A program made the position numbers and the translations under genes. A model generated the notes under the pieces. The model worked only from the letters and a program-made list of their open reading frames with translations, searched no databases and was not told the origin of the DNA. A stretch of DNA of 38,603 bases from an uncultured bacterium (lineage in GTDB: Bacteria > Patescibacteriota > Minisyncoccia > Moranbacterales > UBA1568): positions 1 through 38,603 of the forward strand of contig CALMHZ010000022.1 in NCBI GenBank assembly GCA_937864125.1, in the 5' to 3' direction. Below, one piece after another: positions 3,120 to 26,498 of the stretch; position 1 is the stretch's first letter, and every line of letters starts with the position of its first letter.

Positions 3120-4763
3120 CTACTTTTCTTTGTTTTTCCATACACGCTTCGTTTTAATATACCGCTTTTCCATGTCTCCGAGCCGCCCGGACGGAGTATT
3201 GATGGTAGATATGTCCACTCCTTTGATCGTAGTGGAAAATATATACGAGACGCTCGGACTATAAAGGAATACGGCGGGATTTTTTTCCGCGATGATATCG
3301 AGAAATGAACGCATGAGAGTGCGGTGAGCGTCGGCATTTCCTTCTTCTCGAAGCTTGAAGAGCAGATCATCCGCCTCCGCATCATTGAATAATGACAGGT
3401 TCAATCCCGACTCGCTTTTCTCGCTCGAATGCCAGAAGGAGTAAAAATCCGGATTTACCGAGGTTTTCTCACCGTAGAGCAGGGCATCATATTCCCGTCC
3501 ACGGATGATATTTTGATTCAATTCCGGCAAGGACAGCACTCGTGTCGTCACGCGCGCCCCGATACCTTCCCAAGATTTCTTGAGAGCTTCCATAGTTGTC
3601 AGAAGTTCCGGCAAATCAGGAACCGTCATCTCGAATTGAAGGACGATGCCATCTTTGGCGCGTATGCCATCGGCACCCCGCTTCCAACCCTTTTCATCAA
3701 GCAACCGATTCGCCGCGTCCGGATCGTACGATGCCCCCGACGGCTCTCCTCCCTCCATGAAAAACAGAAGCGGCGAAGTGGCTATCGTCCCTCTCCCGCG
3801 AAGCACATCGCGGACCAGCGCTTCCCTATCGACAGCGCGAGCCAATGCCGCGCGAACTTCCGTATAGGCAAGAGGGACACTCCTTGAAGTGTTGAAAAAC
3901 ACTCCATATACCTGCGGAATATGGAAGTCGCGCACCGAGGTTCCTTTCTTTTCCGATAAGGCGGCTCCCCGATCGACGGAAACGGGGCTCATGCCGATAA
4001 TCTCCTTCTTCTCATACGCGTCGATCATGCTCTCTTCATCCGGATAGAAATTGAAAGAAAGCTTTGTGATATGCGCCTCTCCGGCAAAATATTCTGGGAA
4101 TGCGCGGAGCGAATACGAAAGAATATTCCCACTCGAATCCTTCTGATAATCAAAAAATCGGTAGGGTCCCGATCCGACCGGATTAAGATTCGCCTCAGCC
4201 AACGCGAATCGATCCGGGGCTATGGATTCCCATATATGCCGAGGAAGAATGCCCAAGGTAAGATGCTCAAGAAATCCGAAGTAAGGCTTTTTTAAAGTAA
4301 ACACGACCGTTCGCGCATCCGGAGCGGAAACCTCGACGCCCTGCCAATTTTGCCGAAGCGGGCTCCGATATGCCGGATCTCTTACCGCATTGACGGTAAA
4401 CACCACATCGCCCGAAGAAAGGTCGGTACCATCATGCCACTTCACTCCTGAGCGGAGCGTCACCGTGTATGTCTTTCCGTCTTCCGAAAGAGCATACTTT
4501 TCGGCGAGCTGCGGAACAACTCGCCCATTTTCATCATACCCGAACAAGCCGCTGTAGAGGACCTGGACCAAATCGGAATCCGCCATGTTCGCGGGCGACA
4601 AAAGAGGATTGATATACTGCGGCTGACCGACAATGCCTTCCGTATACTGGCCTCCCCGATCCGGAACAGGCTCGGTTGCCGCGACATACAGCGCGCCGAT
4701 CCAAAAAAGAATCGCTCCTATGATCGCCACGCTAAGGAAAAGGACGGCTATTCTATCCCTCAT
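3120..4763 (-). CDS. ABC transporter substrate-binding protein, family 5 (peptide/nickel type), N-terminally membrane anchored
   Basis: 547-aa ORF with an N-terminal hydrophobic helix (IAVLFLSVAIIGAILFWIGALYV). Family-5 SBP-like segments follow (YTVTLRSGVKWHDGTDLSSGDVVFT, GSGPYRF). No permease or ATPase gene is adjacent. Confidence 0.7.
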   Translation of the reverse strand: MRDRIAVLFLSVAIIGAILFWIGALYVAATEPVPDRGGQYTEGIVGQPQYINPLLSPANMADSDLVQVLYSGLFGYDENGRVVPQLAEKYALSEDGKTYTVTLRSGVKWHDGTDLSSGDVVFTVNAVRDPAYRSPLRQNWQGVEVSAPDARTVVFTLKKPYFGFLEHLTLGILPRHIWESIAPDRFALAEANLNPVGSGPYRFFDYQKDSSGNILSYSLRAFPEYFAGEAHITKLSFNFYPDEESMIDAYEKKEIIGMSPVSVDRGAALSEKKGTSVRDFHIPQVYGVFFNTSRSVPLAYTEVRAALARAVDREALVRDVLRGRGTIATSPLLFFMEGGEPSGASYDPDAANRLLDEKGWKRGADGIRAKDGIVLQFEMTVPDLPELLTTMEALKKSWEGIGARVTTRVLSLPELNQNIIRGREYDALLYGEKTSVNPDFYSFWHSSEKSESGLNLSLFNDAEADDLLFKLREEGNADAHRTLMRSFLDIIAEKNPAVFLYSPSVSYIFSTTIKGVDISTINTPSGRLGDMEKRYIKTKRVWKNKEK

Positions 4764-4888
4764 CCGAAAAGATAAAAAGATGGAAACAAACCCTACCTCC
4801 CTCCATTTGTGGATGACATCCTTAAGAAAAATACTCTTATATTAATTTTTAGGGAAGCTGTGATGGCAAGGATATGCCGAGGATCGAT

Positions 4889-5104
4889 CTAAGAGAGCTT
4901 CGTATTGATGATCGCGAGAAGAACGAATGCGCTTCCCAGGGCCACCGATCCATAGAACAAAAACTTTTCAAGACCCCTTTTCGTGTAATATCCGCCGAAA
5001 TCCCCGCCGAATACCGAGCCAAGGCCGGATCCGCGATTTTGTAGCAATATGAAGATAATAAGGAGCACCGAAACAACCATTTGCGCCCAAAGAAGTGGCT
5101 TCAT
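4889..5104 (-). CDS. secG: Preprotein translocase subunit SecG
   Basis: 71-aa two-helix protein carrying the SecG signature LLQNRGSGLGSVFGG between the hydrophobic segments. Confidence 0.8.
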   Translation of the reverse strand: MKPLLWAQMVVSVLLIIFILLQNRGSGLGSVFGGDFGGYYTKRGLEKFLFYGSVALGSAFVLLAIINTKLS

Positions 5105-5195
5105 AGAGGGAAAAACGAAAGAAAAGAGTCCGAACGAGCTTTTTCCATACTAGCAAAGAACGGAGAAAGAGTCAACCGCGCTTTCCGAAATATGC

Positions 5196-6344
5196 CTACT
5201 TCGGGAAAAATCCGATATCTCCTGGAAGGGAACCATAGGTTTCATCTTTTCCTTCCTCCGTCTGCCGACGATGATATATTCCGAGTAAAAGCCCGATAAT
5301 TACGAAGGAAACGAGCAGGGAGCTGCCTCCATAGGAAAGAAGAGGCGCCGGAATCCCTGTGACGGGAAGTGCTCCGATATTCATGCCCACATTGATGATG
5401 ATCTGAATGGTAAAATAAGAAAATGCCCCAATGGCGATAAGGTATCCCGTATTGTCCCGCGCGGACTCCGCGATGCGCCGTATGCGATAAAGCAGCAGAC
5501 CGTAGGCGAATAGGGTCGCGGCGAATCCGAGAAGACCCAATTCTTCCGCTATCACGGCGACAATGAAGTCCGTGTGTTTTTCCGGCAAAAACGAAAGCTG
5601 GGATTGCGACCCGTACCCCACTCCTTTTCCGAATATTCCTCCTGATCCGACGGCCGTCATCGATTGCAGCACATTGTATCCGCTTCCTCTCGGATCCAGC
5701 TCGGGATTCATGAAGGTCTCAATCCGGCTGCGCTGATAGTCTTCGAGAAAAAACCACCCCGAAAACGCAAGCAGTACGCCCACCAAACAGAGCGCCAAGA
5801 CATGCTTAAGGCGTATCCCGGAAACGAAAATCATTCCGGCCCAGACGCCGGACAGCACGAGAGCGCTCCCGAGATCGGGTTGCCGCAACACGAGAAAAAT
5901 GAATACGGAGGAAAGGACAAGCGAGGCCAAGATACGGACCCACTCGCCGAGCGTCGATCGCTTCTTCGCGATAAAGCTTGCCAGGAAGATAATCAAGGCT
6001 ATTTTTGCTCCCTCCACCGGCTGGAACTGAAACACCCCGATATCGATCCACCCGGAGGTTCCTCGGACGGTCTTTCCGAAAACAATCGCCCCCAGGAGGA
6101 AAAGAATCGTCGCGAAATATATCGGGGTACTGAATTTTCCGATGTGGCGATAGTCGAAAAAAACAAGACCGAACATGAGAAGAATCCCGATACCTCCGAA
6201 CACGGCCTGACGAAGAAAAAAATTTCCCGTCCATGTCCATTCCGGAGAAATCACGGAGAGGCTATACAAAGCAAGCAGGCTCATTCCGAAAAGAAAGATT
6301 GCCGATGCTATCAAAAGCCAGTCGATATCGAAAAATCGTCGCAT
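5196..6344 (-). CDS. SEDS-family peptidoglycan polymerase (FtsW/RodA/SpoVE)
   Basis: 382-aa polytopic membrane ORF with conserved SEDS segments (QPDLGSALV, LPEKHTDFIVAVIAEELGLLG, GIPAPLLSYGGSSLL). Confidence 0.85.
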   Translation of the reverse strand: MRRFFDIDWLLIASAIFLFGMSLLALYSLSVISPEWTWTGNFFLRQAVFGGIGILLMFGLVFFDYRHIGKFSTPIYFATILFLLGAIVFGKTVRGTSGWIDIGVFQFQPVEGAKIALIIFLASFIAKKRSTLGEWVRILASLVLSSVFIFLVLRQPDLGSALVLSGVWAGMIFVSGIRLKHVLALCLVGVLLAFSGWFFLEDYQRSRIETFMNPELDPRGSGYNVLQSMTAVGSGGIFGKGVGYGSQSQLSFLPEKHTDFIVAVIAEELGLLGFAATLFAYGLLLYRIRRIAESARDNTGYLIAIGAFSYFTIQIIINVGMNIGALPVTGIPAPLLSYGGSSLLVSFVIIGLLLGIYHRRQTEEGKDETYGSLPGDIGFFPK

Positions 6345-6430
6345 ACAAGAAAATACAGGCTCACTGCCAAAAAACTATTGTTTTTATCGGAATTCTTTAA
6401 GCGACCCGCGCCCGGAAAGCATCCGAATCA

Positions 6431-7421: not shown

Positions 7422-7539
7422 GTCTTGGCGGCGACCTACTCTCCCCCGCCTTGCGGCGAAGTACCATCGGCGCTGATAGGCTTAACGGCCGAGTTCGAAA
7501 TGGGATCGGGTGTACCTCTATCGCAAAGACCACCAAGAC
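7422..7539 (-). rRNA. rrf: 5S ribosomal RNA
   Basis: The reverse complement reads GTCTTGGTGGTCTTTGCGATAGAGGTACACCCGATCCCATTTCGAACTCGGCCGTTAAGCCTATCAGCGCCGATGGTACTTCGCCGCAAGGCGGGGGAGAGTAGGTCGCCGCCAAGAC. Helix I closes as GUCUUGGUGG/CCGCCAAGAC, and the conserved CCGAAC-like and GAGAGUAGG blocks are present. Confidence 0.92.
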
Positions 7540-7560
7540 TCTGTTTTCCAAGAGAAGTCA

Positions 7561-7580
7561 GAAGCTTTCTGTTGCCAACC
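7561..7580 (-). other. 3' strand of the 23S pre-rRNA processing helix (23S-5S spacer)
   Basis: Plus-strand gaagctttctgttgccaacc. Its RNA (GGUUGGCAACAGAAAGCUUC) pairs over 20/20 positions (18 Watson-Crick plus 2 G-U) with the leader segment at 10854-10873. Confidence 0.6.
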
Positions 7581-7594
7581 GAAAAAAGAAAAAG

Positions 7595-10792
<3,198 letters not shown>

Positions 10793-10853
10793 TTCTCCTT
10801 TCTTCTTCATCTTGTCCGCAAAGTTCCGACGAATCGGAATCTCGCGGACAACC

Positions 10854-11267: not shown

Positions 11268-13868
11268 TTATTGGCCCTCTGAGGAAGGATCGGATGCCGC
11301 GGGGTCGGAAAGAGGGGCTGCGGACCCGGGCTCAACGGTCGATGCTGAAGTCGGACTTGGTTCCGAAACGGGTACGGTCGGAGGGGTCGGAGCGACTACC
11401 GGCACGGGCTCATCCTTGGCGATGTTGCTTCTTCCGCTTTCAAGAGTCTCGATAAATACCGTCACCTGCTTGCGAATAGTATCCCCTTCCGCACCTTCCG
11501 GAAGGAATTCTAAGATTTTACGATATTCGCGGAGAGCGGCATCCCGGTCTTTTTTCTGTTCATACAAGATCCCGAGTCCGAGCCGCACATCGATCAACTT
11601 CTCGTTCGCCTTCAGGATATCCTCATACAACGCTTGTGCCTTGTCATAGTCATCCCCCTCGCCGCGCGCCTGATACAGTGACCCCAGGCTATAACGGTAG
11701 GTCACATTGCCGGGCTCAAGCGCAATCGCCTGCGAAATCGACTCTATGGCCTTGGTATTCTCCTTCAGGCGAGAAAGCGTCACGGCAAGATTGTAATGCG
11801 CGAGAGAAAGATTTTGTTTTTTCTCTATCGCTTTCTCAAAAAATGTTTTTGCCTCTTCGTACAAAGCGGTCTTCTCCGTCCCTTCTTCTTTCTTGGCATC
11901 TCCCATCGCGCGCTTGATCTGTCCGAGCTTCACGAGCAAGAGCGGGTTATTCGGTTCGAGATCAGAGGCCTTCTGATACGCATCAAACGCTTTCGGCAAA
12001 GCATCGGTCGCATAAAGCGCGCTATTTTCATACACCAAGCCCAAGGATTCGGCGATGCGCACATCAGCAGGAGCGATAGCGGATGCTCGCTCGGTTGACG
12101 CGATGGCATTTTGAATATAATTCACCATTTTCTGGGCATCCCCTTCTTCACGAGGCTTCGCCGCCTCCTGGTTGGCAAGAACCATATACGATTGTCCGAG
12201 ACTGACGAAATATCGCGGCTCGCGAGAATAGAGTTCGGCGGCCCGACCAAGATTGCGGATCGACTGTTCGTTCACTTCTTGCTGCCTGAGCACGCTCCCG
12301 GCGTAGATATCCGCGACGAACGCCTTGCCGATGAAAGCGAAGAGGAACGCGACCCCGGCCGATACCACCATGAAAATAAACGCCAACGCGAGGGCGAATT
12401 TCGGAGACGCTTTCAACGAGAGGCTGAGGTACCGCGCGCTCATCTCGCTCTCCCACAGCAGTGCCGCCAAACCAAGGGAAGCGAGCAGCGTCCCGAAGAT
12501 AAGAATCGTTCCGTTGAACGCGGACATGAAGCTTGCGATAAAAAGCATGATGATCGCGCTCCAAAGCCCGAGCGAAAACAGCTTGTTTTTTGCGCTGTCT
12601 ACGGTCAACAAATATACGCCCAAGGAAATGAACGAGAATGCGAGCACGACAAACATGATCGTGCCCAAGACACCGATCGTCGGAAGCGCCTCGAGCAGCA
12701 GCCCAGGCCCCTGATCGAAACGGACCGTATAAAGCGAGTTATTGTTGTACTCCACGGAACGGTATTTGGAAAATGCGTACGCATAATTTCCCGGCCCCGT
12801 TCCCAAAAGGAAATGTCCGTCACCGAGAGTCGACTTCGCTATATCCCACGCGAAAGAGAGTTTCGGCAAAACCTCTACGGGGAGATTCGCTTTCGCGATG
12901 CGCATCTCTCCGACCATGAAGAAAGAAAGGATCACGACAAATACGAGCATGGGGACCCACACCCACTGCTCAGGCGGCCGCACGATTTTCGCAAGCATGA
13001 AGATAAGGAAGAATCCCAATCCCCCAAGGATGACCGGCCAGGTCACGAATGGGAACAATGCCGCGATCAAGAACAGGTTTCCCATCAGACTGAGGAACAC
13101 CACGCCTGCCATGATCCATGTCAAGAAAGAAGCTTTTCTTTCTTTCCTGAAAAAAAGCGCGAAGAGCGCGGTAAGAAAGATGGGGATGGTCATCGAAAGC
13201 AAGGTGACGAGCGTGGAAACGGTCCCCGTAAGGGAAAGCGGGGAGCGGATCGCCACCGACTGCGGCAGAAACTGCACCCCCATGACGGCGAGAGTGCTCC
13301 AAAGCACGACCAAGGACGAAGCCCCGACCAATCCGCCGAACATCCATGTGAATCGTTTCGGAGTAAAGTGCGCGATCAGGAAGTAGTAAGCGAGCACAAG
13401 CGCGAGGATGGAAAGCAGGCCTCTCGAAGGGTCGCCGAAGGGGCCAAGCAGGCTGTGCCAGCGATCGAGAGAGAAAATTGTCGCGATGCCGTAAGTAACC
13501 ACAAATAGAAGGATGGGGACATCGAGCGGTGTCCGCCGTATGCGCATTTCTCCTTGCATCACTCCCTTCGATACCCAGGAGACAAGCCCGATAAGCAACC
13601 AAAAATAGAAGTAGAGCTGTTTTTCGAAAGCGATTCCCTGAAAGGTCGCACCGGTAAAGAATATCGGAAATCCGAAAAAGAGAGCGAACAAGGAAACGGA
13701 TATCGCGCCATCAAAGAATCTGCTCGCTATGCCTGTCTTTTTTTCCGGACTTCTTTTCGGAACCATATGGTCGCCGGGCTTCGCTTGTGTCCGAAACACC
13801 GGGATGGCCGAGGATACATTCTCATCGTTCGCTCTCCGCGTTGCAAACGGTATTTTCCCTTCTTCCAT
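11268..13868 (-). CDS. Polytopic membrane protein of the O-antigen ligase / Wzy_C-like family fused to C-terminal TPR repeats and a Pro/Ser/Thr-rich tail
   Basis: 866-aa ORF. The first 560 aa or so contain more than 10 hydrophobic helices and the Wzy_C-like loop segment HFLLGTGPGNYAYAF. The last 300 aa or so show TPR periodicity (e.g. AHYNLAVTLSRLKENTKAIESISQAIALEPGN, YRYSLGSLYQARGEGDDYDKAQALYEDIL). The tail reads PVPVVAPTPPTVPVSEPSPTSAS. Confidence 0.7.
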   Translation of the reverse strand: MEEGKIPFATRRANDENVSSAIPVFRTQAKPGDHMVPKRSPEKKTGIASRFFDGAISVSLFALFFGFPIFFTGATFQGIAFEKQLYFYFWLLIGLVSWVSKGVMQGEMRIRRTPLDVPILLFVVTYGIATIFSLDRWHSLLGPFGDPSRGLLSILALVLAYYFLIAHFTPKRFTWMFGGLVGASSLVVLWSTLAVMGVQFLPQSVAIRSPLSLTGTVSTLVTLLSMTIPIFLTALFALFFRKERKASFLTWIMAGVVFLSLMGNLFLIAALFPFVTWPVILGGLGFFLIFMLAKIVRPPEQWVWVPMLVFVVILSFFMVGEMRIAKANLPVEVLPKLSFAWDIAKSTLGDGHFLLGTGPGNYAYAFSKYRSVEYNNNSLYTVRFDQGPGLLLEALPTIGVLGTIMFVVLAFSFISLGVYLLTVDSAKNKLFSLGLWSAIIMLFIASFMSAFNGTILIFGTLLASLGLAALLWESEMSARYLSLSLKASPKFALALAFIFMVVSAGVAFLFAFIGKAFVADIYAGSVLRQQEVNEQSIRNLGRAAELYSREPRYFVSLGQSYMVLANQEAAKPREEGDAQKMVNYIQNAIASTERASAIAPADVRIAESLGLVYENSALYATDALPKAFDAYQKASDLEPNNPLLLVKLGQIKRAMGDAKKEEGTEKTALYEEAKTFFEKAIEKKQNLSLAHYNLAVTLSRLKENTKAIESISQAIALEPGNVTYRYSLGSLYQARGEGDDYDKAQALYEDILKANEKLIDVRLGLGILYEQKKDRDAALREYRKILEFLPEGAEGDTIRKQVTVFIETLESGRSNIAKDEPVPVVAPTPPTVPVSEPSPTSASTVEPGSAAPLSDPAASDPSSEGQ

Positions 13869-13999: not shown

Positions 14000-16900
14000 C
14001 TATCGGCGTTCAACCAGCCACCAGTCGATTTTTATCGGCGCCGTTATCGGCTCGGAAACGCGGATATCAAAGCCCACATAATCCCCCTCGTCATTAACAT
14101 ATTTTTCTACCCAGGAAAATCCGCCCGGATTTCCGGTAAAGCTCGTAAATACTTGGCTTCCTTTCATCATCGGGATCATCGCCTTCGTCATCACTCGGAC
14201 ACTCTTCCCATCCCGCTCCCCCGCCTCGTCCATCGCTTCTCCGCTGAAGTCGTCGCGGCCGTCTTGATCGGCATCGATCGCCTTGGGGTAGAGCACGGCC
14301 GTCCCGATCGTCGGCGCCTCAATGTCTTGGTTCTCGATCACGATGCCTCCCGTGGTGAGGAGTCTTGCCTTGATGCTCCCCCCGAGGAGGTCGACATTGC
14401 CTTCCTTGTCTGTGGCGACGAGGCGCTGCATGTCAAGGGTGGTGAAGAACTCGAGGAGGGCCTGGCTCTGGTCCGAGAGGGTCGTCATCTCTTCTTCGAG
14501 CGTCGCGAGGGAAGAGCGGGTGCGGGACTGTTCCTCCTCGAGGGCGAAGACGCGGGTGTCGAGGGCGGTCGTGCGGTCATCTGTTTTGGAGGAGGCTTTC
14601 TCGATGTCCGAGAGGGCCTCGCTTACGGAGAGGAGTTCGGCGTCGATCGAGGCCTGGAGGGAGCCCAAGGTGGTGACGTTCTGGTCGGTTTTGAGCGAGA
14701 GGGTGGCCAGCTTCTCATGCTCCTCGGCGAAGAGGGTGCCTTTCACGTCGGAGAACTTGGCGTAGAGGCCGTGGAGGGCGCCGTCTTGCATCGGGTTCTC
14801 GACGAAGGGCATGAGGAAGTCTCCTTGGGCGAGGGGTTTGTCTTCATTGAAGGATTTCCGATCGAAGTCGTAGCTGTAGGCTTCGTAGTCGGGGATCTGG
14901 AAACCAGCCGTCTGAGCGGAGTAGTGCCAGGCTCCTCCGTAGCGGTAGTAGATGCGGCCGTTGGTCGAATCGATGCAGATCGTGCCGTCGGTGTCGGTCG
15001 AAAAGGTGGTATCATCGCAGGCTCCGGCGTTCACCTTGGTCGTCAAGCCGTCTGCTCCGTTCACCTGGCCGGTTGCGGTCACGTTGCCGTTTGAGGCAAG
15101 GAGGAACTGCTCGACTCCCCCGTAGCTTGCCTTGATGAGGTTGGTTGTGACGCCGGTCGTCGCGGTGTTGACGGTGTCGATGCCGAGGACATTCAAGGTG
15201 GTCGTGGTGTTGGAAAGGCCGGTATTGATGGTGGGGAGGATGCGGAGGCCGGGGTAGGTCTTGGTGAGCGCGTCGTTTTTGGTGAGGGAGAAGGTGAAGT
15301 TCGCGGCGCCTACGGTGCTATCGGCATCGGTTGCAAGAGTGAGGCCCGAGACATCGAGGCGGGTCGAAGGGACGGTGGTGCCGAGGCCGAGACGATTGCT
15401 CGAATCATTCCAAAACAGATTCGTATTGTCTTGCTCCAGCGCCCCGGAAATACCTGCGAACAAAACGGATCCGATAGTCGGCGCGTACCAAGTAGGTGTG
15501 GCAGTTCCCCCGGAAACAAGAGCCTGTCCCGTCGAGCCGGCGGCGGACTGAAAGGCATAAGATGTCCCATCGGAATACGGGAGCGTCCCGGCTGCCCCTA
15601 AGGTCGTCGCGTTTGTTCCGCCCTTCGATATCGCGAGAACTCCCGTCATATTGGCGAGATTGCCATAGTAGGATCCGTCCTGGCCATCGAGAAGATCGGC
15701 ATCGAGTGTCGATCCGGAGCCGTCATTCCCCGAAGTGAATACCGTTCCACCGGTCGTAAACGAGTATGTCTGATCCGCACTGAGATCCCCTACATCAAAG
15801 GCGCCGAAAAATGTCGCGCCGGATGATTCGAGTATTTTTATTTCAGAAAAAGCATTGCCGAGAATGATATCGAATGCGCCGCTCTGGCTCCAGTCCGAGG
15901 TGAGCGCGCTCAAGGCAAGGGTCGGAGTCCCTCCTTCCGCGGCCGAGGCCCCCGAAATTCCATTTCCCGCTGTTATCGTCGCGACATAATTTCCCACGGT
16001 ATCTGTCGTAAGTAAAACGGCATTGGAAGCGATAGTAAAGACTCCGGCATCGGTGATGCTCGCGTCCCCGGAAAGCGTCGCGAACCCCGGATTGCCCGCG
16101 GTGACTCCGAGAAGCACTTGTCCTGATGTGCCGGCTGCCGTGGCGGAAATCGCCGAGGTCCCGTTGCCATACAGAACGCCTTTTGAAGTGAGGGTGGCGG
16201 CGCCGGTTCCGCCATATTGCGCTCCGATGACGGTCCCGTTCCAAAGGGCGCTCGTGAAGGTCTGGCCCGCGTTGAGAAGCGCCACGGTTCCGGTCGCATC
16301 GGGCAAGGTGATCGTCCGATCGGCCGTCGGGTTCGTAATAAGAAGCGTCGTCTCATTCAAATCATCCGCTCCGGTTCCTTCGAAGACGATCTGATTGCCC
16401 GTGGTGACATCGAAGAAAAATCGGGAAGCGATACCGGTCGTTCCTCCGATAGCAAGATCATCGGCTATGTCGGTAAGATATGTGAGTGTTCCGGTGTCCG
16501 TCCATTTGGAAGTTCCGGTACCGGCCGTATTGGAAATCCAGGTGAAGCCCGCGGTAGTCGAATCATAGGAGAGGACATACCCGTTCGTCGGAACATTGGT
16601 TGCTTCCAAGTCCACTTCCTCGATGGTGTTGTTGGCAATCTCAGCTCCGCTAATATCCGTCCCCAAGGTCGAGTTGATGGTAATGGATCCTGCTCCATTC
16701 GTAATGGTGATTCCTGTTCCCTGAGTCATCGTGGCAAGCGTATATCCCGAACCATTTCCGATAAGAACGGTTCCAGCGGCGGCAGCGGCGCCATTTATTC
16801 CGGTTCCGCCATACTGCGCTCCGACGACGGTCCCGTTCCAAAGGGCGCTCGTGAAGGTCTGGCCCGCGTTGAGAAGCGCCACGGTCCCCGTCGCATCGGG

Positions 16901-19900
16901 CAAGGTGATCGTCCGGTCGGCCGTCGGGTTCGCGACCGAAAGCGTGATCTCAAAAGCATCGATGACGGAGCCGTCGAAAGTAAGCGTGTGATTGGTTCCG
17001 TCGATGAAACATCCTCCGCTTGTGCAAGAACCGACATCGGTGATATCGCCCGCGCCGACCGCGCCGGAGGAAACCCATGTAAATCCTCCGGTGGCATTGC
17101 TGAAAGAAAGAAGGTATCCATCAGTGGGGGCATTGGTTGCCTCGAAATCCACCTCCTCGATGGTGTTATCGGCTATTTCCACCCCTGCCACGGAAGAAGC
17201 GCTCAGTGTCAACACTCCCGCCGAGGACAATGTTCCATCCCCCGAAAGAGCAGTAAAGCTGGGAACATTGGTGGCGTTTGCGACAAGAAGCTGTCCCGCG
17301 GTTCCGCTTGCGGAAGAAAGAGGCGAAGTGCCGTTCCCCAAAAGCACTCCGTTGGTAGGAAGCGTCGTAAGCCCCGTTCCCCCATTCGCCACGGCGATCG
17401 TCGTCCCCTGCCAAGTGCCGCTTGTCACCGTGCCGGTAGCCGTGATGCTCGAAAGATTCCCGGTCGTAATCACGGTGCCGGATGCATTGGGAAGGTTGAT
17501 GCTCCGATCGGCGGAAGGATCGACGACGCCCAGTGTGGTTTCGAACGCGTCCGCTGTGGCTCCTTCGAACGCGAGCGTAGAGGCGGAGACATCGAAGAAA
17601 AATCCGGTATCGATGGCAGATCCCCCTAACACGAGGTCATCCGTCGTATCGGTAAGGAAGGTATAAGTACCGTTGTCCGTATATTTGGAAGATCCGGTAC
17701 CCCCTGAGTTCGCGATCCAGGTGAAGCCGCCGGTCGTCGAATCATAGGAGAGGATGAAGCCGCCAGTCGGCGCGTTGGTCACTTCGAGATCGATTTCCTC
17801 GATCGTATTGCTTGCGATATTCGCCCCGACAACGCTCCCGATCCCGAGAGACAGGACCCCGGTATTGGAAAGGGAAGCGTCTCCCGAAAGCGTGACGAAC
17901 GTAGGAATGTTCGATGCGTTCGCAACGAGCAATTGCCCGGATGTTCCCGTGGTCGTACCGAGCACGCCGCCTGCAGAATTGGTCACGAGGCCCGCGCTTG
18001 AAAGCCCCGAAAAGGTGATGGTGCCGCTTGATGTGATGCCTGCGGCCGAGGCGATGGCGCCAGTTGAATTGACCTGGAAGAGATCACCATTGCCTACGGT
18101 GAGGAGGGAAGCCGGGGTGGTGTCGCCGAGGCCGACATTGCCACGAAGCAAAGTCTGGGTGATGGAGGCGTTGCCTAAGACGACCTGGTTCGATTGCGTG
18201 GCCTGGGCCTGGTAGCCTACGGCGATCGCATTGGTGAGTCCGTCGACCGAAGTATTGGCGTCTCTTCCTATGAAGACGCTGTTAGCGTTAGTGCTGAGGG
18301 CGACACTCGAATTATATCCGGCTTGATAGCCCAAGGCGGTGTTGCCGGAGCCAGTGGTGTTGGATTGGCTGGCGTAAGCGCCGAGAAACGCATTATTAGC
18401 TCCGGTGGTGTTGAGACGGCCGGCCGATTTTCCGATGATAGTATTGGCGGAGCCCGTTGACAGATACCCGGCGGCATAATGGCCAAGTATGGTGTTGTAG
18501 CTATACGAACCACCTCCGTCATACCCGGCAGCCGTGTATCCGATGATAGTATTGGCGGTCCCGGTCTCGTTATACAATCCGGCAAAAGAACCGACATACG
18601 TATTTTCAAAACCGGTCGTATTGGAATTTCCAGCGACATTCCCGAAAAAAGAGTTATCAAAACCGGTCGTATTGTAACGACCCGCCTCATTCCCGAAAAA
18701 AGAGTTGCCGGATGTGGTGGTGGTGTATTGGCCCGCAGAATCGCCGAAAAAGGAATTGTAGCTTCCGGTTGTGTTGGCGTAACCGGCATAACTTCCAAAA
18801 AAGGCATTCTGAATTCCGGTCGTGTTCGAAAAGCCGGATTGGGATCCGACAAAGGTATTCTCCGCGCCCGTCATCGTCAGATTCCCCGCGTTTCCGAAGA
18901 AATAATTGTTCAAAGAAGGCTGCGCCGTAATGACAGGGGTGCCATTATACCTGTAGGCCGACCCGGCGGAAACATTGATACTTCCGGCGATATCCAATTT
19001 CTGAGTAGGCCCGCTTGTTCCCACTCCCACATTCCCCGACGCATCGATCACGAAGGGCGTGGTATCGCTTGCCTGGTCGCTTACGAGGAAGGAGTTGCCC
19101 GTTCCCGTGTTGGTGAGCGAAAGAGCGTTGGACCCGGTGATGGAAATGTCGGTCGATGCATCGAGCGTGAGAAGGTCCTTGAGCTCGGTGAAATCAAGGG
19201 AGTCCGCGGTGATGCTCCCGCCCCCGAGAGTCGTCCATGTAGGAATGCCGCTGCCCCCTGAAATGAGCGCCTGCCCGGCCGAGCCGACACTCGAGAATCC
19301 ATACGAGGACCCGGTGGAGTACGCGATCGATCCGGCCGAGCCGAGGGTGGCGGAATTCGTACCGCCGCGGCTCACGGCAAGATATGTTTCGCTCCCAATC
19401 GTACCTGTCCCCGTCCAATAGGCAACCGACCCCATTGTGCCGGTCCCGCTCACGCTTCCCGCGCCCGAAGTGATATCGGAAAATATCGTTCCATCATTGG
19501 AAAATTGCCAGCTTTGAGTGGCTCCGTTATAGCGAAGCGCCGCGGGGGCGGTCGCGTTCGAAACCGTCAGATCGAAGTTCGAAGCAGAAGGGGAGGACCC
19601 CGATCCGATATTGAAAACTTCCGAACTGGTCCCGGTATCGGTATTCTGATCGTGAAGCCGGCCATCAGATCCGAGCAGCAGTTGCTTGGTGCCCGTTCCG
19701 GTAGGAAGTATCTTGATATCGATTTTTCCTTTGGCATCTAGGGCTGGGATATCGCCTCCGTTGGTGCCGAAAGTCTTTCCATTCAGAGTACGCGCGGTAT
19801 TCGCGCTGAATGCCGAAGGGACGGAGGTGATTTTTTTCCGCGGCACGATTTCCGAGTCCTCGCCTATCCGTATGCCCAGATAATAATCCTTGTCGCCTGA

Positions 19901-20266
19901 AAAAAGATCTGGCGGAATGACCACCTTGCTTCCAAGAGTCGTTCGCATGACCCCATTGCGAACTTCTATTTCCTGCGCCTCCTCCCACAATCGGAAGCCC
20001 GCATCGGCATCGGAAGGGAAGGCATCCCGGACCGTTCGATCCTTGCTGTAAAGCCTGAATCGCACTTGATACTTTCCGTTTATCGGCTCATTTTTTACAT
20101 CAAAGAGGGAAAGAGAAATGCTTATTTGTTCCAATGACTGCGAAAAAACGACTGCAGGTCCTCCCTGCCACCATAGGTGCATCCCCGCTATCAGTATCAC
20201 AGCCAGGATGCGTATGAAGTTTTTATGGAATTTTTGTGTTACATATGTCTTCATTGGTGCTCTCAA
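14000..20266 (-). CDS. Giant (2088 aa) Gly/Thr/Ser-rich fibre-like surface protein: N-terminal hydrophobic anchor/signal, tail-fibre-like motifs, beta-solenoid-type repeats, three ~200-aa modules, coiled coil, C-terminal globular domain
   Basis: A single uninterrupted 6267-nt frame. The N-terminus is MRAPMKTYVTQKFHKNFIRILAVILIAGMHLWW. Recurrent GGT[GN] motifs occur (VSRGGTNSATLG, VANGGTGLTTL, QYGGTGAATL, ISKGGTNATTLG). There are about 15 repeats of 17 residues (NxFxGxxAGxxNTTGxx). The motif NTIEE[IV]D[LF]E[AV]TN[AV]PT occurs three times. A heptad-like segment LQASIDAELLSVSEALSDIEKA...LATLEEEMTTLSDQSQALLEFF is present. An alternative start lies at Met5 (20254). Confidence 0.85.
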   Translation of the reverse strand: MRAPMKTYVTQKFHKNFIRILAVILIAGMHLWWQGGPAVVFSQSLEQISISLSLFDVKNEPINGKYQVRFRLYSKDRTVRDAFPSDADAGFRLWEEAQEIEVRNGVMRTTLGSKVVIPPDLFSGDKDYYLGIRIGEDSEIVPRKKITSVPSAFSANTARTLNGKTFGTNGGDIPALDAKGKIDIKILPTGTGTKQLLLGSDGRLHDQNTDTGTSSEVFNIGSGSSPSASNFDLTVSNATAPAALRYNGATQSWQFSNDGTIFSDITSGAGSVSGTGTMGSVAYWTGTGTIGSETYLAVSRGGTNSATLGSAGSIAYSTGSSYGFSSVGSAGQALISGGSGIPTWTTLGGGSITADSLDFTELKDLLTLDASTDISITGSNALSLTNTGTGNSFLVSDQASDTTPFVIDASGNVGVGTSGPTQKLDIAGSINVSAGSAYRYNGTPVITAQPSLNNYFFGNAGNLTMTGAENTFVGSQSGFSNTTGIQNAFFGSYAGYANTTGSYNSFFGDSAGQYTTTTSGNSFFGNEAGRYNTTGFDNSFFGNVAGNSNTTGFENTYVGSFAGLYNETGTANTIIGYTAAGYDGGGSYSYNTILGHYAAGYLSTGSANTIIGKSAGRLNTTGANNAFLGAYASQSNTTGSGNTALGYQAGYNSSVALSTNANSVFIGRDANTSVDGLTNAIAVGYQAQATQSNQVVLGNASITQTLLRGNVGLGDTTPASLLTVGNGDLFQVNSTGAIASAAGITSSGTITFSGLSSAGLVTNSAGGVLGTTTGTSGQLLVANASNIPTFVTLSGDASLSNTGVLSLGIGSVVGANIASNTIEEIDLEVTNAPTGGFILSYDSTTGGFTWIANSGGTGSSKYTDNGTYTFLTDTTDDLVLGGSAIDTGFFFDVSASTLAFEGATADAFETTLGVVDPSADRSINLPNASGTVITTGNLSSITATGTVTSGTWQGTTIAVANGGTGLTTLPTNGVLLGNGTSPLSSASGTAGQLLVANATNVPSFTALSGDGTLSSAGVLTLSASSVAGVEIADNTIEEVDFEATNAPTDGYLLSFSNATGGFTWVSSGAVGAGDITDVGSCTSGGCFIDGTNHTLTFDGSVIDAFEITLSVANPTADRTITLPDATGTVALLNAGQTFTSALWNGTVVGAQYGGTGINGAAAAAGTVLIGNGSGYTLATMTQGTGITITNGAGSITINSTLGTDISGAEIANNTIEEVDLEATNVPTNGYVLSYDSTTAGFTWISNTAGTGTSKWTDTGTLTYLTDIADDLAIGGTTGIASRFFFDVTTGNQIVFEGTGADDLNETTLLITNPTADRTITLPDATGTVALLNAGQTFTSALWNGTVIGAQYGGTGAATLTSKGVLYGNGTSAISATAAGTSGQVLLGVTAGNPGFATLSGDASITDAGVFTIASNAVLLTTDTVGNYVATITAGNGISGASAAEGGTPTLALSALTSDWSQSGAFDIILGNAFSEIKILESSGATFFGAFDVGDLSADQTYSFTTGGTVFTSGNDGSGSTLDADLLDGQDGSYYGNLANMTGVLAISKGGTNATTLGAAGTLPYSDGTSYAFQSAAGSTGQALVSGGTATPTWYAPTIGSVLFAGISGALEQDNTNLFWNDSSNRLGLGTTVPSTRLDVSGLTLATDADSTVGAANFTFSLTKNDALTKTYPGLRILPTINTGLSNTTTTLNVLGIDTVNTATTGVTTNLIKASYGGVEQFLLASNGNVTATGQVNGADGLTTKVNAGACDDTTFSTDTDGTICIDSTNGRIYYRYGGAWHYSAQTAGFQIPDYEAYSYDFDRKSFNEDKPLAQGDFLMPFVENPMQDGALHGLYAKFSDVKGTLFAEEHEKLATLSLKTDQNVTTLGSLQASIDAELLSVSEALSDIEKASSKTDDRTTALDTRVFALEEEQSRTRSSLATLEEEMTTLSDQSQALLEFFTTLDMQRLVATDKEGNVDLLGGSIKARLLTTGGIVIENQDIEAPTIGTAVLYPKAIDADQDGRDDFSGEAMDEAGERDGKSVRVMTKAMIPMMKGSQVFTSFTGNPGGFSWVEKYVNDEGDYVGFDIRVSEPITAPIKIDWWLVERR
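16204..16335 (-). repeat. Copy B of a 132-bp near-identical direct repeat inside the giant gene
   Basis: cggttccgccatattgcgctccgatgacggtcccgttccaaagggcgctcgtgaaggtctggcccgcgttgagaagcgccacggttccggtcgcatcgggcaaggtgatcgtccgatcggccgtcgggttcg. It differs from copy A at 5 positions and encodes ADRTITLPDATGTVALLNAGQTFTSALWNGTVIGAQYGGTG. Confidence 0.9.
16801..16932 (-). repeat. Copy A of the 132-bp near-identical direct repeat inside the giant gene (597 nt = 199 codons from copy B)
   Basis: Same sequence as 16204-16335 apart from five substitutions (four transitions and one C/G transversion). It encodes ADRTITLPDATGTVALLNAGQTFTSALWNGTVVGAQYGGTG. A third, diverged copy (ADRSINLPNASGTVITTGNL...VANGGTG) lies at about 17371-17513. 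Confidence 0.9.
18152..18910 (-). repeat. Coding tandem repeats of 51 nt / 17 residues (about 15 units) within the giant gene
   Basis: Translated units: NNYFFGNAGNLTMTGAE, NTFVGSQSGFSNTTGIQ, NAFFGSYAGYANTTGSY, NSFFGDSAGQYTTTTSG, NSFFGNEAGRYNTTGFD, NSFFGNVAGNSNTTGFE, NTYVGSFAGLYNETGTA, NTILGHYAAGYLSTGSA, NTIIGKSAGRLNTTGAN, NAFLGAYASQSNTTGSG and so on, ending NAIAVGYQAQATQSNQVVLGNASITQT. Confidence 0.85.
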
Positions 20267-20338
20267 ATACCTCTCAGGAGAGAGGCTCAGCTCCTCGAAT
20301 TATATCACAACAAGGAATTGTAAAGAAGGCTTCCGCGA

Positions 20339-21040
20339 CTACTTATCGACCGCCCACCCGAACACATCTCCTACGGCTCCGGCGATAAGCTCGAACAAGG
20401 ACACCTCGCGCGCGCCGGTATACACGGCGTACGGATCGCTCTTCGCGGTGTTACCCCACTTATCCCGGCTCGCTATGGTATAGATATAAGTCGATGCGGG
20501 GGCAAGTTCGGGAATGATGAGGCTGTGATTGGTGCCGTACGCTTCTTCGCGGATCACGCCCTCGGCGGCCTCGATGTTCTTCCCGTAGGATACTTCCGAT
20601 AATGCGGGTTTGCTCGTCTCCCAGGTGATCACGAGTTGCGATCCTTTTTTATTTTTTTCGGTAAACGCCTCCCCTCTCACCGACAGGATCTCAAGGGGCG
20701 TGACATCTATCTCAGGAATGGTAAGGGCAGCCTCTCCTCCAAGAGCGATATCCCCGACCCGGAAATGTTCGCTCTGGTAAAGAGCATCCGTGGGAAGCGC
20801 CGGCTCAACGGCAGTCACGGGCTTCTCACTTTCTTTCGGAGCCGAAAGGGGCGCGGCGCTTATGGGAGCCGCTTGCGTCGGAGCTGTTTCAGGGGCCGCC
20901 GTGAAAAAACGCTGCCAGAGGAAAAAACCTGCCACGGCGAGAATCCCGGTGGCCACAAAAGAACCCAGGAATAAAAAAAGGCGTCGCTTGGGTTTCAAGG
21001 GAAGAGAAGGGACTGATGCGTCCGGAGGAATTTCAGGCAT
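20339..21040 (-). CDS. Membrane-anchored protein with a Pro/Ala-rich linker and an FN3-like (purple-acid-phosphatase-N-like) domain
   Basis: I prefer the start at Met60 of the listed ORF (ATG at 21040-21038): MPEIPPDAS...RRLFLFLGSFVATGILAVAGFFLW. The longer version (to 21217) would overlap the divergent manC start and has an implausible leader. The FN3-like segment is QLVITWETSKPALSEVSYG...HSLIIPELAPASTYIYTIASRDKWGN. Confidence 0.6.
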   Translation of the reverse strand: MPEIPPDASVPSLPLKPKRRLFLFLGSFVATGILAVAGFFLWQRFFTAAPETAPTQAAPISAAPLSAPKESEKPVTAVEPALPTDALYQSEHFRVGDIALGGEAALTIPEIDVTPLEILSVRGEAFTEKNKKGSQLVITWETSKPALSEVSYGKNIEAAEGVIREEAYGTNHSLIIPELAPASTYIYTIASRDKWGNTAKSDPYAVYTGAREVSLFELIAGAVGDVFGWAVDK

Positions 21041-21110
21041 ATCTTTACGAAAAAAAAGATACGATGCCCTTACTATATCACGAATACCGCTCATTCGACA
21101 GGGAGAGCGC

Positions 21111-21139
21111 TTGCCGAAGACGCGGTTTCCCCGTATGAT
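21111..21139 (+). promoter_or_regulatory. Candidate promoter for manC in the divergent intergenic region
   Basis: TTGCCG-17 nt-TATGAT on the + strand, ending 28 nt before the ATG at 21168. Confidence 0.3.
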
Positions 21140-21167
21140 TTTCAGGTATCCTTTTTGATTCACTCCT

Positions 21168-22265
21168 ATGGATGATAAGCGGAGAGTGATCGTCATCATG
21201 GCAGGAGGATCCGGCACGCGGCTCTGGCCCCTCTCCCGGAAAGATGATCCGAAGCAGTTTCAAGCGCTCCTCTCGAAACACACCCTCCTCGAAGAGACAT
21301 TCAAACGAGCTCTTTTGGTGGTGCCGGAACAGGACATATATATTTCAACCACCGCCCGCTACCAAGAAAAGGTTCAGGCGATACTCCCCAATGTTCCTAC
21401 GGACAGGCTGATCATCGAACCGGAAGCGCGAGGCACGGCGGCAGCGATCCTTTTGGTCACTGCTTTTTTCGAAACTTTCTCATCCAGGACCATCATAGCG
21501 ACCATCGCCTCCGATCACGCTATCGAAAACGATGACGCCTTTGCGGCCGCGCTTACACTGGGTCTCGACACGATAGCCGAAGACCCAACGAAACTCGCGG
21601 TCCTCGGCATCAATCCCACCGCTCCCGATACGGGTCTCGGCTACATAAAAATGGGAGGAGCTTTCAAGTCCGCGCATGACAAGGAGGTGTTTTTCGTCGA
21701 GGAATTCAAAGAAAAACCGACGAAAGATCAAGCGGAGATATATCTTGCGGACTGGAAATATCTCTGGAATGCAGGATATTTCATATTCGCTTCCGATACC
21801 ATGGAAACATGGATGGGCGAATATATGGACAAGGGGGCGGCTACACTGAAGATCATCAAGGATGCCCTCGCGACGGATGACCAAGATATGCTGGAAACGG
21901 CTTATCAGGATTGTACGACGGATGCCATCGAACCCGTCCTTGTGGAAAAACTGCGCGAAGAATCGAGACTCGTTATTCCGACACATATGATATGGAGCGA
22001 TATCGGAACGTGGAACAGTCTCTTTTCCTCGCTAAAAAACAAGTATGACACCGACCTTGTCTTAAGCGAGCGAGTCGTCGCGCATGCAAGCGGAAATACT
22101 CTTGTGCAAAGCCGTACAAAAAAGGTGGTCGCCCTTCTCGGGGTCAAAGATCTTATCATCATCGATACCGAGGACGCCCTCCTTATCGCCCACCGAAAAG
22201 ATACGCAAGACATAAAAATTCTCCTCAAGTCCATGAAGGACCGGGGGTACGAACGCCTTCTTTAG
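21168..22265 (+). CDS. manC: Mannose-1-phosphate guanylyltransferase (GDP-mannose pyrophosphorylase), nucleotidyltransferase domain only
   Basis: 365-aa ORF. The N-terminal signature is VIVIMAGGSGTRLWPLSRKDDPKQF, followed by GYIKMG and WNAGYFIF motifs typical of ManC/GMP enzymes. This is the only gene on the + strand. Confidence 0.82.
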   Translation: MDDKRRVIVIMAGGSGTRLWPLSRKDDPKQFQALLSKHTLLEETFKRALLVVPEQDIYISTTARYQEKVQAILPNVPTDRLIIEPEARGTAAAILLVTAFFETFSSRTIIATIASDHAIENDDAFAAALTLGLDTIAEDPTKLAVLGINPTAPDTGLGYIKMGGAFKSAHDKEVFFVEEFKEKPTKDQAEIYLADWKYLWNAGYFIFASDTMETWMGEYMDKGAATLKIIKDALATDDQDMLETAYQDCTTDAIEPVLVEKLREESRLVIPTHMIWSDIGTWNSLFSSLKNKYDTDLVLSERVVAHASGNTLVQSRTKKVVALLGVKDLIIIDTEDALLIAHRKDTQDIKILLKSMKDRGYERLL

Positions 22266-25940: not shown

Positions 25941-26498
25941 TTATGACTTCAACGCATGTGTTATAGGCTCTTCTTCTTTCGCCTTCGCCTCTTTTATTGA
26001 TGGAGATGACGGAGCGGTTTCTTCCGCTTTCGCGACATTCTTCAAATCCCCCAAGGCAAGGATGGTCGCGCGGGCGAGATTGAGCGAATTCGATGATCCG
26101 AGAGACTTCGATACCACGTCTTTCACTCCGAGAAGATCCATGACCGCGCGCACAGCACCTCCGGCGATGAGCCCCCGTCCTTCTTTTCCGGGCTTGAGCA
26201 TCACTTTGGCGCTTCCATATTTCGCGCGCACATCATGAGCGATCGTTCCGCCGACGAGCGTGACGGTCGAAAGGCTCTTCTTCGCATCATTGAAGGCTTT
26301 CTGAATAGCATCGGACACATCGCTTCCCTTGGCGATTCCGACCCCGACTTTTCCCTTCCGATTGCCGATAACCAGCGTAGCACGGAATCGGAATCGGCGT
26401 CCTCCTTTTACCACACGGGTAACGCGCGCCAAATCAAGGAGTTTCTGATCATACTCCGGCTTCTCTCTCCGCCCCATTTTTTTCATCGGCTTTGCCAT
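25941..26498 (-). CDS. rpsE: 30S ribosomal protein S5
   Basis: 185 aa, with VTRVVKGGRRFRFRATLVIGNRKGKVGVGIAKG. It has a short acidic/Lys-rich C-terminal tail. Confidence 0.93.
   Translation of the reverse strand: MAKPMKKMGRREKPEYDQKLLDLARVTRVVKGGRRFRFRATLVIGNRKGKVGVGIAKGSDVSDAIQKAFNDAKKSLSTVTLVGGTIAHDVRAKYGSAKVMLKPGKEGRGLIAGGAVRAVMDLLGVKDVVSKSLGSSNSLNLARATILALGDLKNVAKAEETAPSSPSIKEAKAKEEEPITHALKS

Follow-up and report, generated by a model that had tools for sequence, protein, structure and literature searches.

A giant fibre gene and its conserved partner gene

Contig CALMHZ010000022.1 of an uncultured bacterium carries a gene for a giant fibre-like protein and, directly upstream on the same strand, a second gene that recurs beside related fibre genes; we analysed both within the whole 38.6-kb stretch of DNA (the window). 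The fibre is encoded on the minus strand in a frame (14000..20266) that the open reading frame (ORF) listing gives as open for 2088 codons from a TTG and that takes up 16.2% of the window; a preliminary description had likewise reported one uninterrupted frame of 6.3 kb, coding for 2088 aa and filling 16% of the window. At the base composition of the window, a stop-free run of 2088 codons would arise by chance with a probability of about 1e-33. Because the database gene call (P0001, 2084 aa) and the homologues, including the closest one, P0002 (MTEYVKQKIWKNF...), begin at the ATG of codon 5, we take 14000..20254 as the better coordinates, which makes the listed ORF (TTG at 20266) four codons too long. 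Thr, Gly, Ala and Ser together make up 47% of the protein and Ser plus Thr 24%; there are only four Cys residues, arranged as two close pairs.

The 6.3-kb frame is a real, intact gene. Its longest repeat at the DNA level is 153 nt with 92% identity, and there are no long exact repeats. At least 21 of 119 first-round homologues share its N-terminal head and 10 of the 119 its C-terminal region; in six homologues, each assembled independently (P0003, P0004, P0005, P0008, P0011 and P0054), both ends are present around different middles. Because of this recurrence of both ends and the lack of long exact repeats, a collapsed or chimeric assembly appears unlikely. The middles of the relatives vary strongly in modules and in length (1,900 to 3,400 aa), and the ends are conserved.

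The partner gene lies at 20339..21040 on the minus strand. It is listed as an ORF of 292 aa (GTG start, 20339-21217) that overlaps a divergent mannose-1-phosphate guanylyltransferase-like (ManC-like) gene; because homologues align only from Met60, its real length is probably 233 aa, with the start at 21040. The protein consists of a short N-terminal tail, one transmembrane (TM) segment, a Pro/Ala-rich linker, a fibronectin type III (FN3)-like domain with weak Pfam matches to Pur_ac_phosph_N and fn3, and a C-terminal motif, SLFELIAGAVGDVFGWAV.K, that is strongly conserved among homologues as TG....S.F.LI..A....FGWA. It is 46% identical to the product of the gene just upstream of P0003, which sits in a different genomic neighbourhood, and 34% identical to that of the gene upstream of P0012 (CP064974.1).

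To follow this pairing, GTDB species representatives were scanned with a pattern for the Moranbacteria-type head, which yielded 148 related loci; 80 were kept and 79 of these had at least 1 kb of upstream sequence. In 57 of the 79, a partner homologue with the same orientation stands directly upstream, the distance from its end to the head match being 126-588 nt (median 223); these loci belong nearly all to Moranbacteria/Patescibacteria. The partner is found within 3 kb of the head in four further loci, and the pairing is also seen in L001 and L003. In the literature that could be searched, we found no description of the fibre family or of the gene pair in Candidate Phyla Radiation (CPR) bacteria. 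The partner-fibre gene pair is the main new finding of this work.

Some loci with the Moranbacteria-type head, the partner and the ManC synteny (L006, L007, L013, L014 and about 25 more; 45-65% identity) come from metagenome-assembled genomes labelled 'uncultured Bdellovibrionales' (third-party annotation, TPA, binchicken assemblies); this taxonomic label looks doubtful. In the window, the intergenic stretch from the partner stop to the fibre start (20255-20338, minus strand) holds, by eye, TTTACA and, 14 nt on, TGATATAAT, which resembles an extended -10 element. A consensus scan leaves this pair unscored on account of the short spacer, and scans for terminators and promoters gave counts no higher than shuffle expectation. 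It may be that the fibre gene is transcribed from a promoter of its own.

Related fibre genes clearly do not assemble easily. P0002 (3050 aa, from a JGI metagenome) has at least nine near-identical modules of about 200 aa followed by frame-shifted, low-complexity degeneration, a sign of how poorly such genes assemble, and many of the GTDB loci (L004, L006 and others) break off inside the giant gene. In a complete 1.11-Mb Moraniibacteriota genome (CP064974.1; locus L003, 8001-22444), the positional orthologue P0012 is 2147 aa long and its C-terminal end is Arg/Pro/His-rich and looks out of frame; it is directly followed by a 3334-aa ORF with a Peptidase_S74 domain, and a frameshift or a sequencing error may have divided a single gene of more than 5,400 aa into these two.

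Predicted signal peptide and N-terminal head

All features of the fibre given below lie on the minus strand. The single N-terminal hydrophobic segment mentioned in the preliminary description is present as ILAVILIAGMHLWW at aa 20-33. We read it as part of a cleavable Sec-type signal peptide (aa 5-42; 20141..20254), with a K/R-rich n-region, ILAVILIAGMHLWW as the h-region and then GGPAVVFS/QS, where cleavage is predicted between VFS and QS. The aligned positions of homologues read VFAQS, TKAQT, SLAQV and AFAAT, in keeping with a signal-peptidase site of the AxA type. A TM anchor at this position was considered and rejected, since the c-region VFS/QS aligns with the AQ/AxA sites of the homologues.

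The head that follows (aa ~44-155; 19802..20137) was modelled with AlphaFold2 (AF2) from 22 homologues as a beta-sandwich, with a predicted local distance difference test score (pLDDT) of 83-97; all AF2 models in this work are monomers. We searched a profile of the head against 1.84 billion representatives of 50%-identity clusters and obtained 64,088 matches at E<=1e-3, of which 35,868 reach E<=1e-10. The proteins range from 200 to 5,600 aa, and the matched part falls nearly always within residues ~20-170. These numbers bear out the earlier impression that this domain heads many environmental tail-fibre proteins. The head has no relative in Pfam, in PHROGs or among PDB sequences, and a Foldseek search of the model against the PDB returned only generic immunoglobulin (Ig)-like sandwiches at E>=0.03. 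A sample of 36 head-bearing proteins was mostly dark in Pfam as well, with sporadic matches to Peptidase_S74, Peptidase_G2, H_lectin, YadA_head, Laminin_G_3, CBM_4_9, Kelch, FG-GAP and beta-helix families.

A mosaic shaft related to phage fibres

The head and the C-terminal region are joined by a mosaic shaft of roughly 1,550 residues, which has phage tail fibres and tailspikes among its homologues. Searched as a whole against Pfam, NCBIfam and PHROGs, the protein gives almost nothing, and seven separate segments give nothing in Pfam at E<=10. We also queried PDB sequences with the whole protein, the head profile, the C-terminal profile, the C-terminal module M1 described below and three shaft segments; only Bd2133 of Bdellovibrio and the Pam1 tailspike were meaningful matches, both of them weak. 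Other PDB matches (LY86, armadillo designs, T-antigen pilin and 3HWU) were dismissed as chance.

The match to Bd2133 (8OND; phmmer E=0.007, weak) is the only meaningful one for the whole protein. It comes from the motif SGNVGVGTSGPTQKLDIAG in the proximal shaft (aa 156-452; 18911..19801), with the alignment falling on GNVGVGTSGPTQKLDIAG. The proximal shaft contains a GGTNSATL-type module and the first of three capping-loop-like motifs, GVGTSGPTQKL (aa 414). Such motifs, of the form G[VIL]G-x3-4-P-xxx-L, are found at aa 414, 712 and 1627 against a chance expectation of 0.03; the motif is general to S74-type fibres too and is not specific to mosaic adhesive trimer (MAT) fibres, the Bdellovibrio family to which Bd2133 belongs. 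The motif GGT[GN]xxTL, counted five times in the preliminary description, does occur, with four exact copies (aa 301, 962, 1352 and 1549) and a looser GGT[GN] core at aa 855 and 1153.

Next comes an array of 17-residue repeats (Nx[FI][FVI]Gxx[AS]Gxx[NT]TTGxx; aa 453-699, 18170..18910). The repeat noted earlier is real and strictly periodic, with a count of 12-13 units (aa 453-678, followed by NAIAVGYQAQATQSNQVVLGN) in place of about 15. Scanned alone, the array matches tail-spike and virion-structural PHROGs at 1e-16 to 1e-13 (phrog_4636, tail spike, 1e-16), and by tblastn it finds tail-fibre and spike genes of Pelagibacter, Roseobacter and Bacillus (SPO1 group) phages and of one archaeal virus, with up to 43% identity and E=2e-31. 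The shaft as a whole has tblastn matches in 49 phage records. Together, the tblastn and PHROG matches confirm that the shaft modules are phage-fibre-like, as had been proposed. The suggestion that the array ends in a YadA-head-like sequence (NAIAVGYQAQATQSNQVVLGN) did not hold up: YadA_head was undetected by Pfam in aa 440-720 even at E<=10, there is no PDB sequence relative, and we rejected membership of the array in that family.

The middle of the shaft is built from the three modules of about 200 aa that the preliminary description had recognised by their NTIEE motif (NTIEE[IV]D[LF]E...FTW[IV]...ADR[ST]IxLP[DN]A[ST]GT; aa 769-1350, 16217..17962). They are mutually 37-75% identical, with NTIEE[IV]D[LF]E at aa 820, 1034 and 1213 and ADR[ST]IxLP[DN]A[ST]GT at aa 919, 1116 and 1315, and their relatives include phrog_38058 (tail fiber, 3e-7) and a stretch of Pelagibacter phage HTVC008M. 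The distal shaft (aa 1351-1739; 15050..16216) has further GGT modules and the third capping-loop-like motif, GLGTTVPSTRL (aa 1627).

The C-terminal region

The AF2 model of aa 1725-2088, built from 31 homologues, has a mean pLDDT of 83 and consists of a beta module, M1 (aa 1744-1837), a continuous helix (aa 1838-1943), a linker of low confidence (aa 1948-1975) and a beta-sandwich (aa 1987-2086), which we call M3. M1 is defined from alignments as aa 1740-1845 (TKVNAG..DSTNGRIYYRYGGAWHY.AQTAGFQIP...DGALHGLY; 14732..15049) and is modelled with pLDDT ~85-91. Its invariant pattern is D-S..G-R-x-Y-x-R-Y...W-H-Y..Q-T-A-G-F-Q-I-P...D-G-A-x-H-G, and it has no relative in Pfam or the PDB. In other proteins of the family the position of M1 is filled by Peptidase_S74 (P0007, P0126 and P0130) or by a Peptidase_G2-like module with ADYAEYF (P0008), and the same coiled coil and sandwich follow M1, S74 or the G2-like module alike. 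Some M1 variants have a Cys4 zinc-ribbon-like insert (CPVCG...C..C), and this form ends the short proteins P0141, P0145 and P0148.

The coiled-coil-like stretch of about 95 aa anticipated from the sequence corresponds to aa 1847-1943 (14438..14728), a single long helix in the AF2 model (pLDDT 85-97) whose 14 heptads run without a stutter. The core positions read L-T-L-I-V-I-T-L-L-T-L-L-L-L and H-S-V-Q-L-L-S-T-V-Q-L-M-S-F.

M3 (aa 1987-2088; 14003..14308; pLDDT 75-94) is the C-terminal globular end that had been predicted, here modelled as a beta-sandwich. Its first loop, confidently modelled, is formed by the acidic, calcium-site-like motif DADQDGRDDF that the preliminary description had also picked out (aa 1998-2007; 14246-14275), and the loop is conserved as DxDxDGxDD within the Moranbacteria subgroup; perhaps the tip depends on Ca2+ through it. 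M3 stands at the C-terminus of 70 of 293 collected proteins, many of which had been gathered through the head alone. In a set of 31 diverse M3 relatives, 13 match Pfam K1-lyase_C (PF24146, best 2.6e-8) and 11 match H_lectin (PF09458, best 1.6e-6). The M3 family profile matches the C-terminal domain of the cyanophage Pam1 tailspike (7EEA residues 597-655) at E=0.0014, and hhalign joins the query-like and lectin-like M3 subgroups with a probability of 98.9%. Foldseek lists the K64-1 depolymerase, the Pam1 tailspike, K1 lyase and Helix pomatia agglutinin, and, in BFVD, proteins named 'K1 capsule-specific polysaccharide lyase C-terminal domain', all with weak E-values. Through its relatives, the profiles thus tie M3 to the terminal domains of the K1-lyase_C and H-type-lectin group, and membership in this fold family suggests that M3 would bind glycans.

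Organism and genomic surroundings

This is chromosomal DNA. Besides the fibre gene and its partner, the window holds a tRNA-Leu gene, a 23S-5S pair, genes for FtsW/RodA and a solute-binding protein, the ManC-like gene, and the end of a ribosomal-protein operon that includes SecY, Adk and Map. The fibre, its head and its neighbours have their nearest relatives in sequences named Candidatus Moranbacteria/Moraniibacteriota or Patescibacteria. Genes for S5 (25941-26498) and L15 (25491-25931), both on the minus strand, lie 9 nt apart without an intervening L30 gene and precede SecY-Adk-Map; a missing L30 gene is a hallmark of CPR genomes. By these sequence criteria the source organism is CPR-like and, more narrowly, Moranbacteria-like, and the CPR-like hallmarks pointed out at the start are borne out by the Moranbacteria relatives and the absence of L30 between S5 and L15. 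The 23S rRNA match (7423-10797, minus strand) covers 3208 nt against a model of 2925 nt, implying an insertion of about 280 nt, and 5S adjoins it; no 16S gene was found within the 38.6-kb window. Unlinked, insertion-bearing rRNA genes are typical of CPR bacteria.

The ManC-like gene (21168..22265, plus strand; Pfam and NCBIfam) is the divergent neighbour of the partner-fibre pair and is divergent at 29 related loci too. Together with the 24% Ser plus Thr of the fibre, this neighbour raises the idea that the fibre is glycosylated; the gene is possibly linked to the fibre in this way, or possibly just syntenic. Just downstream of the fibre gene lies a gene (11268-13868, minus strand) for an 866-aa protein with a polytopic N-terminal half, for which there is no Pfam match, and C-terminal tetratricopeptide (TPR) repeats. 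In L051 and L057, homologues of this protein are encoded on the upstream side of the partner gene.

Comparison with known fibre systems

The preliminary description had stated that no characterised family combines these features. This was overstated: MAT fibres follow the same logic, and their capping-loop motif is present in the query. The MAT fibres of Bdellovibrio bacteriovorus (among them Bd2133 and Bd1334, both non-S74; Caulton et al. 2024) are trimers displayed on the cell surface; they combine an invariant N-terminal domain with phage-like beta-helical shafts that bear the capping-loop motif V-G-G/N-pi-x-x-P-x-x-x-L and with swappable S74 or non-S74 tips, and one of these fibres binds prey glycans (PMC10769870). 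Like them, the query is cellular and not phage-borne, is predicted to be secreted, and combines a conserved N-terminal head with a phage-fibre build; it shares the weak shaft similarity to Bd2133 and the three capping-loop motifs. As in the non-S74 class, its terminal domain is a beta-sandwich with no S74, and its relatives swap S74, G2-like and M1 modules. Both the query head and the MAT N-terminal domain are reported to have no structural homologue in the PDB. We conclude that the fibre is probably a giant relative of the non-S74 MAT fibres, which are the closest characterised system, and is not wholly new. In contrast to MAT fibres, the query is about twice as long (2,084 vs ~1,000 aa) and comes from a monoderm-type CPR lineage rather than from a predatory proteobacterium. 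The 17-residue array, the three 200-aa modules, M1 and the 14-heptad coiled coil are found in the query and described for no MAT fibre, and the query further differs in a tip of the K1-lyase_C/H-lectin group and in the conserved TM-FN3 partner gene.

Phage tailspikes with a C-terminus of the K1-lyase_C type (Pam1, 7EEA; Klebsiella K1 lyase, 7W1C; K64-1 S2-4, 9K4A) resemble the query in shaft PHROGs and in a related terminal sandwich. The query differs from them in its Sec-type signal peptide, non-phage head and housekeeping context and in lacking a virion-attachment N-terminus; a catalytic beta-helix or depolymerase domain was undetected by Pfam in the whole protein and its segments. Many query homologues carry PF13884, as do the Peptidase_S74 'tail fiber domain-containing proteins'. 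The query itself gives no match to PF13884, as a whole protein or in segments, at E<=10, and the uncharacterised M1 stands in the place of S74. By eye, trimeric autotransporter adhesins of the YadA type are also similar, with an Asn/Gly/Thr-rich array that ends in NAIAVGYQAQATQSNQVVLGN and a coiled-coil stalk, and some query homologues match PF05658 (YadA_head). Unlike these adhesins, the query has a repeat period of 17 and a C-terminus that is a soluble-type beta-sandwich in the AF2 model, with no beta-barrel anchor and no Pfam anchor match; the anchoring logic is also reversed, with the head at the N-terminus and the tip at the C-terminus. H-type lectins such as Helix pomatia agglutinin, to which Pfam links 11 of the 31 M3 relatives and which Foldseek lists for the query model, differ from the query M3 in that it falls below detection in Pfam and carries the DxDxDGxDD insertion.

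A surface attachment fibre as the favoured interpretation

With moderate confidence, we favour reading the protein as a Sec-exported surface attachment fibre. Export is suggested by the signal-peptide features conserved in homologues, and on Sec export the signal peptide would be removed. The N-terminal beta-sandwich head would then lie at the cell-proximal end, the orientation proposed for MAT fibres, and hold the fibre on the envelope. The upstream single-pass membrane protein could grip the head through its FN3-like ectodomain or its C-terminal motif; this anchoring role, suggested by the gene pairing, is tentative, and we would not be surprised to see it fail. The ~1,550 residues of interchangeable phage-fibre-like shaft modules would act as a spacer, and the C-terminal assembly of M1, the 14-heptad coiled coil and M3 would both nucleate trimerisation and offer a partner cell or particle a tip that binds carbohydrates. 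The fibre is probably a homotrimer, because its shaft relatives, the MAT fibres and the K1-lyase_C/H-lectin domains are all trimeric and because an uninterrupted coiled coil of 98 residues with polar core layers suits a trimer. The 370-residue tip of Bd2133 is ~150 Å long (PMC10769870); taking this value of ~0.4 Å per residue, plus ~145 Å for the coiled coil, a mature fibre would by rough estimate measure ~80-100 nm. A more far-reaching version would see the partner-fibre pair as a lineage-wide, non-pilus host-attachment organelle of Moranbacteria, a monoderm CPR group, in which the TM-FN3 protein docks the head of a lectin-tipped, host-selecting trimer of ~90 nm. We regard this version as speculative and, as it stands, unlikely.

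Several observations weigh against an attachment fibre. The M3 of the query gives no Pfam match to H_lectin or K1-lyase_C; its tie to that group is transitive, and every Foldseek E-value exceeds 1e-3. Autocleavage by S74 in P0007, P0126 and P0130 would remove the coiled coil and terminal sandwich, so that a role as a folding chaperone fits this region at least as well as a role as a tip. With the signal peptide off, the mature fibre has no recognisable wall or membrane anchor. The part given to the partner comes from gene adjacency, and the kinship with MAT fibres from the shaft motif and tip logic. Trimerisation, surface display and ligand binding are all indirect deductions.

One rival explanation is that the protein is a structural fibre of the envelope or of cohesion, such as an S-layer-like coat, a sheath or a tether between the organism's own cells, conserved as cell architecture. 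It would account for a fixed, lineage-wide locus with a membrane partner, near FtsW/RodA, the GDP-mannose pyrophosphorylase-like gene and the polytopic TPR protein, for the conservation of both ends, with a tip that is not hypervariable, and for a Ser plus Thr content that would allow heavy glycosylation. Adhesins and receptor-binding proteins, however, are what the architecture of a fibre with a lectin-like tip resembles; the middle is mosaic among relatives, as expected for host-range proteins, and an S-layer homology (SLH) or other wall-binding domain was undetected by Pfam in the whole protein and its segments. We consider this rival unlikely, if worth keeping in view. A second concerns the C-terminal region, where M1, the coiled coil and the sandwich might chiefly be an intramolecular device for folding and trimerisation, perhaps shed, with binding left to the shaft. 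M1 does sit exactly where the autoproteolytic S74 or the G2-like module sits in the relatives named above. The C-terminal domains of phage fibres nucleate trimer folding. That behaviour and the S74 processing of MAT fibres (PMC10769870) are precedents for such a device. The query, though, has no S74 or G2 match, and no Ser-Lys cleavage motif is visible in its M1, so the region should stay attached; moreover, domains of the K1-lyase_C/H-lectin type are kept as terminal domains in the solved Pam1 and K1-lyase structures. As a full explanation the folding device is improbable, although it and an attachment fibre are not mutually exclusive.

Might the gene instead encode the tail fibre of a phage or prophage, or what is left of one after recent capture? 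Shaft modules have matches among phage families of tail spikes and fibres and in phage genomes, relatives frequently bear the name 'tail fiber domain-containing protein', and M1 has a phage counterpart: a phage fragment with portal/MuF-like, protease and major capsid genes (L084, IMGVR_UViG_3300037067_000315, 3967-6408) encodes an 813-aa fibre-like protein that ends in a Cys4 variant of M1. That example apart, phage relatives cover shaft modules only. Neither the head (171 aa) nor the C-terminal 364 aa has a match at E<=0.1 in 50,697 phage genomes, or any in PHROGs, and a scan of IMG/VR with the peptide pattern DSE[MIA][VT]PRK of the Moranbacteria-type head confirmed no relative. No phage gene was found in the 38.6-kb window, where genes for rRNA, FtsW/RodA, SecY, Adk and Map surround the fibre gene, and at least 57 species share the partner-fibre locus; the housekeeping context and this synteny over dozens of species uphold the preliminary judgement that the fibre is cellular and has no phage genes nearby. 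Because the head and C-terminus lack phage matches, the context is one of housekeeping genes and a Sec signal peptide appears to be present, we excluded a prophage part, and a prophage origin was rejected in view of the phage-free window, the syntenic cellular locus and the non-phage head; a phage remnant of any kind is very improbable. Still harder to credit is that the long frame is an assembly artefact, a repeat collapse or a chimera of several genes. Related genes are hard to assemble, many loci stop inside the gene, and P0002 and P0012 run into frame-shifted junk. Here, by contrast, the frame is uninterrupted, the best DNA repeat is the 92% one of 153 nt, and the N- and C-terminal regions co-occur in the six independent homologues; a chimera was rejected on the grounds that long exact repeats are missing and the ends are paired elsewhere.

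Significance

How CPR bacteria recognise and hold their partner cells is largely unknown outside Saccharibacteria; in cultivated examples, the evidence points to type IV pili and assorted adhesins (PMC12206443, PMC10633639). The locus described here is a concrete candidate for attachment that is conserved over many species, a giant fibre with a lectin-like tip and a dedicated membrane partner. It also brings out three families that the Pfam-A copy used leaves unrecognised in this protein, namely the N-terminal head with its 64,088 50%-identity clusters, M1 and the partner protein. Large adhesin-like fibres in CPR genomes will not surprise a specialist; this one is ordinary in kind and individually uncharacterised. 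What stands out is the lineage-wide gene pair, the size of the head family and the lectin-like tip, which offers a testable handle on attachment in Moranbacteria. The idea behind MAT fibres, that cells borrow parts of phage fibres for cell-cell recognition, would thereby extend to ultrasmall bacteria of the episymbiont type. If the organelle proposal were true, the head found in tens of thousands of uncharacterised bacterial fibre proteins would be a general 'cell-side socket' for cellular phage-like fibres.

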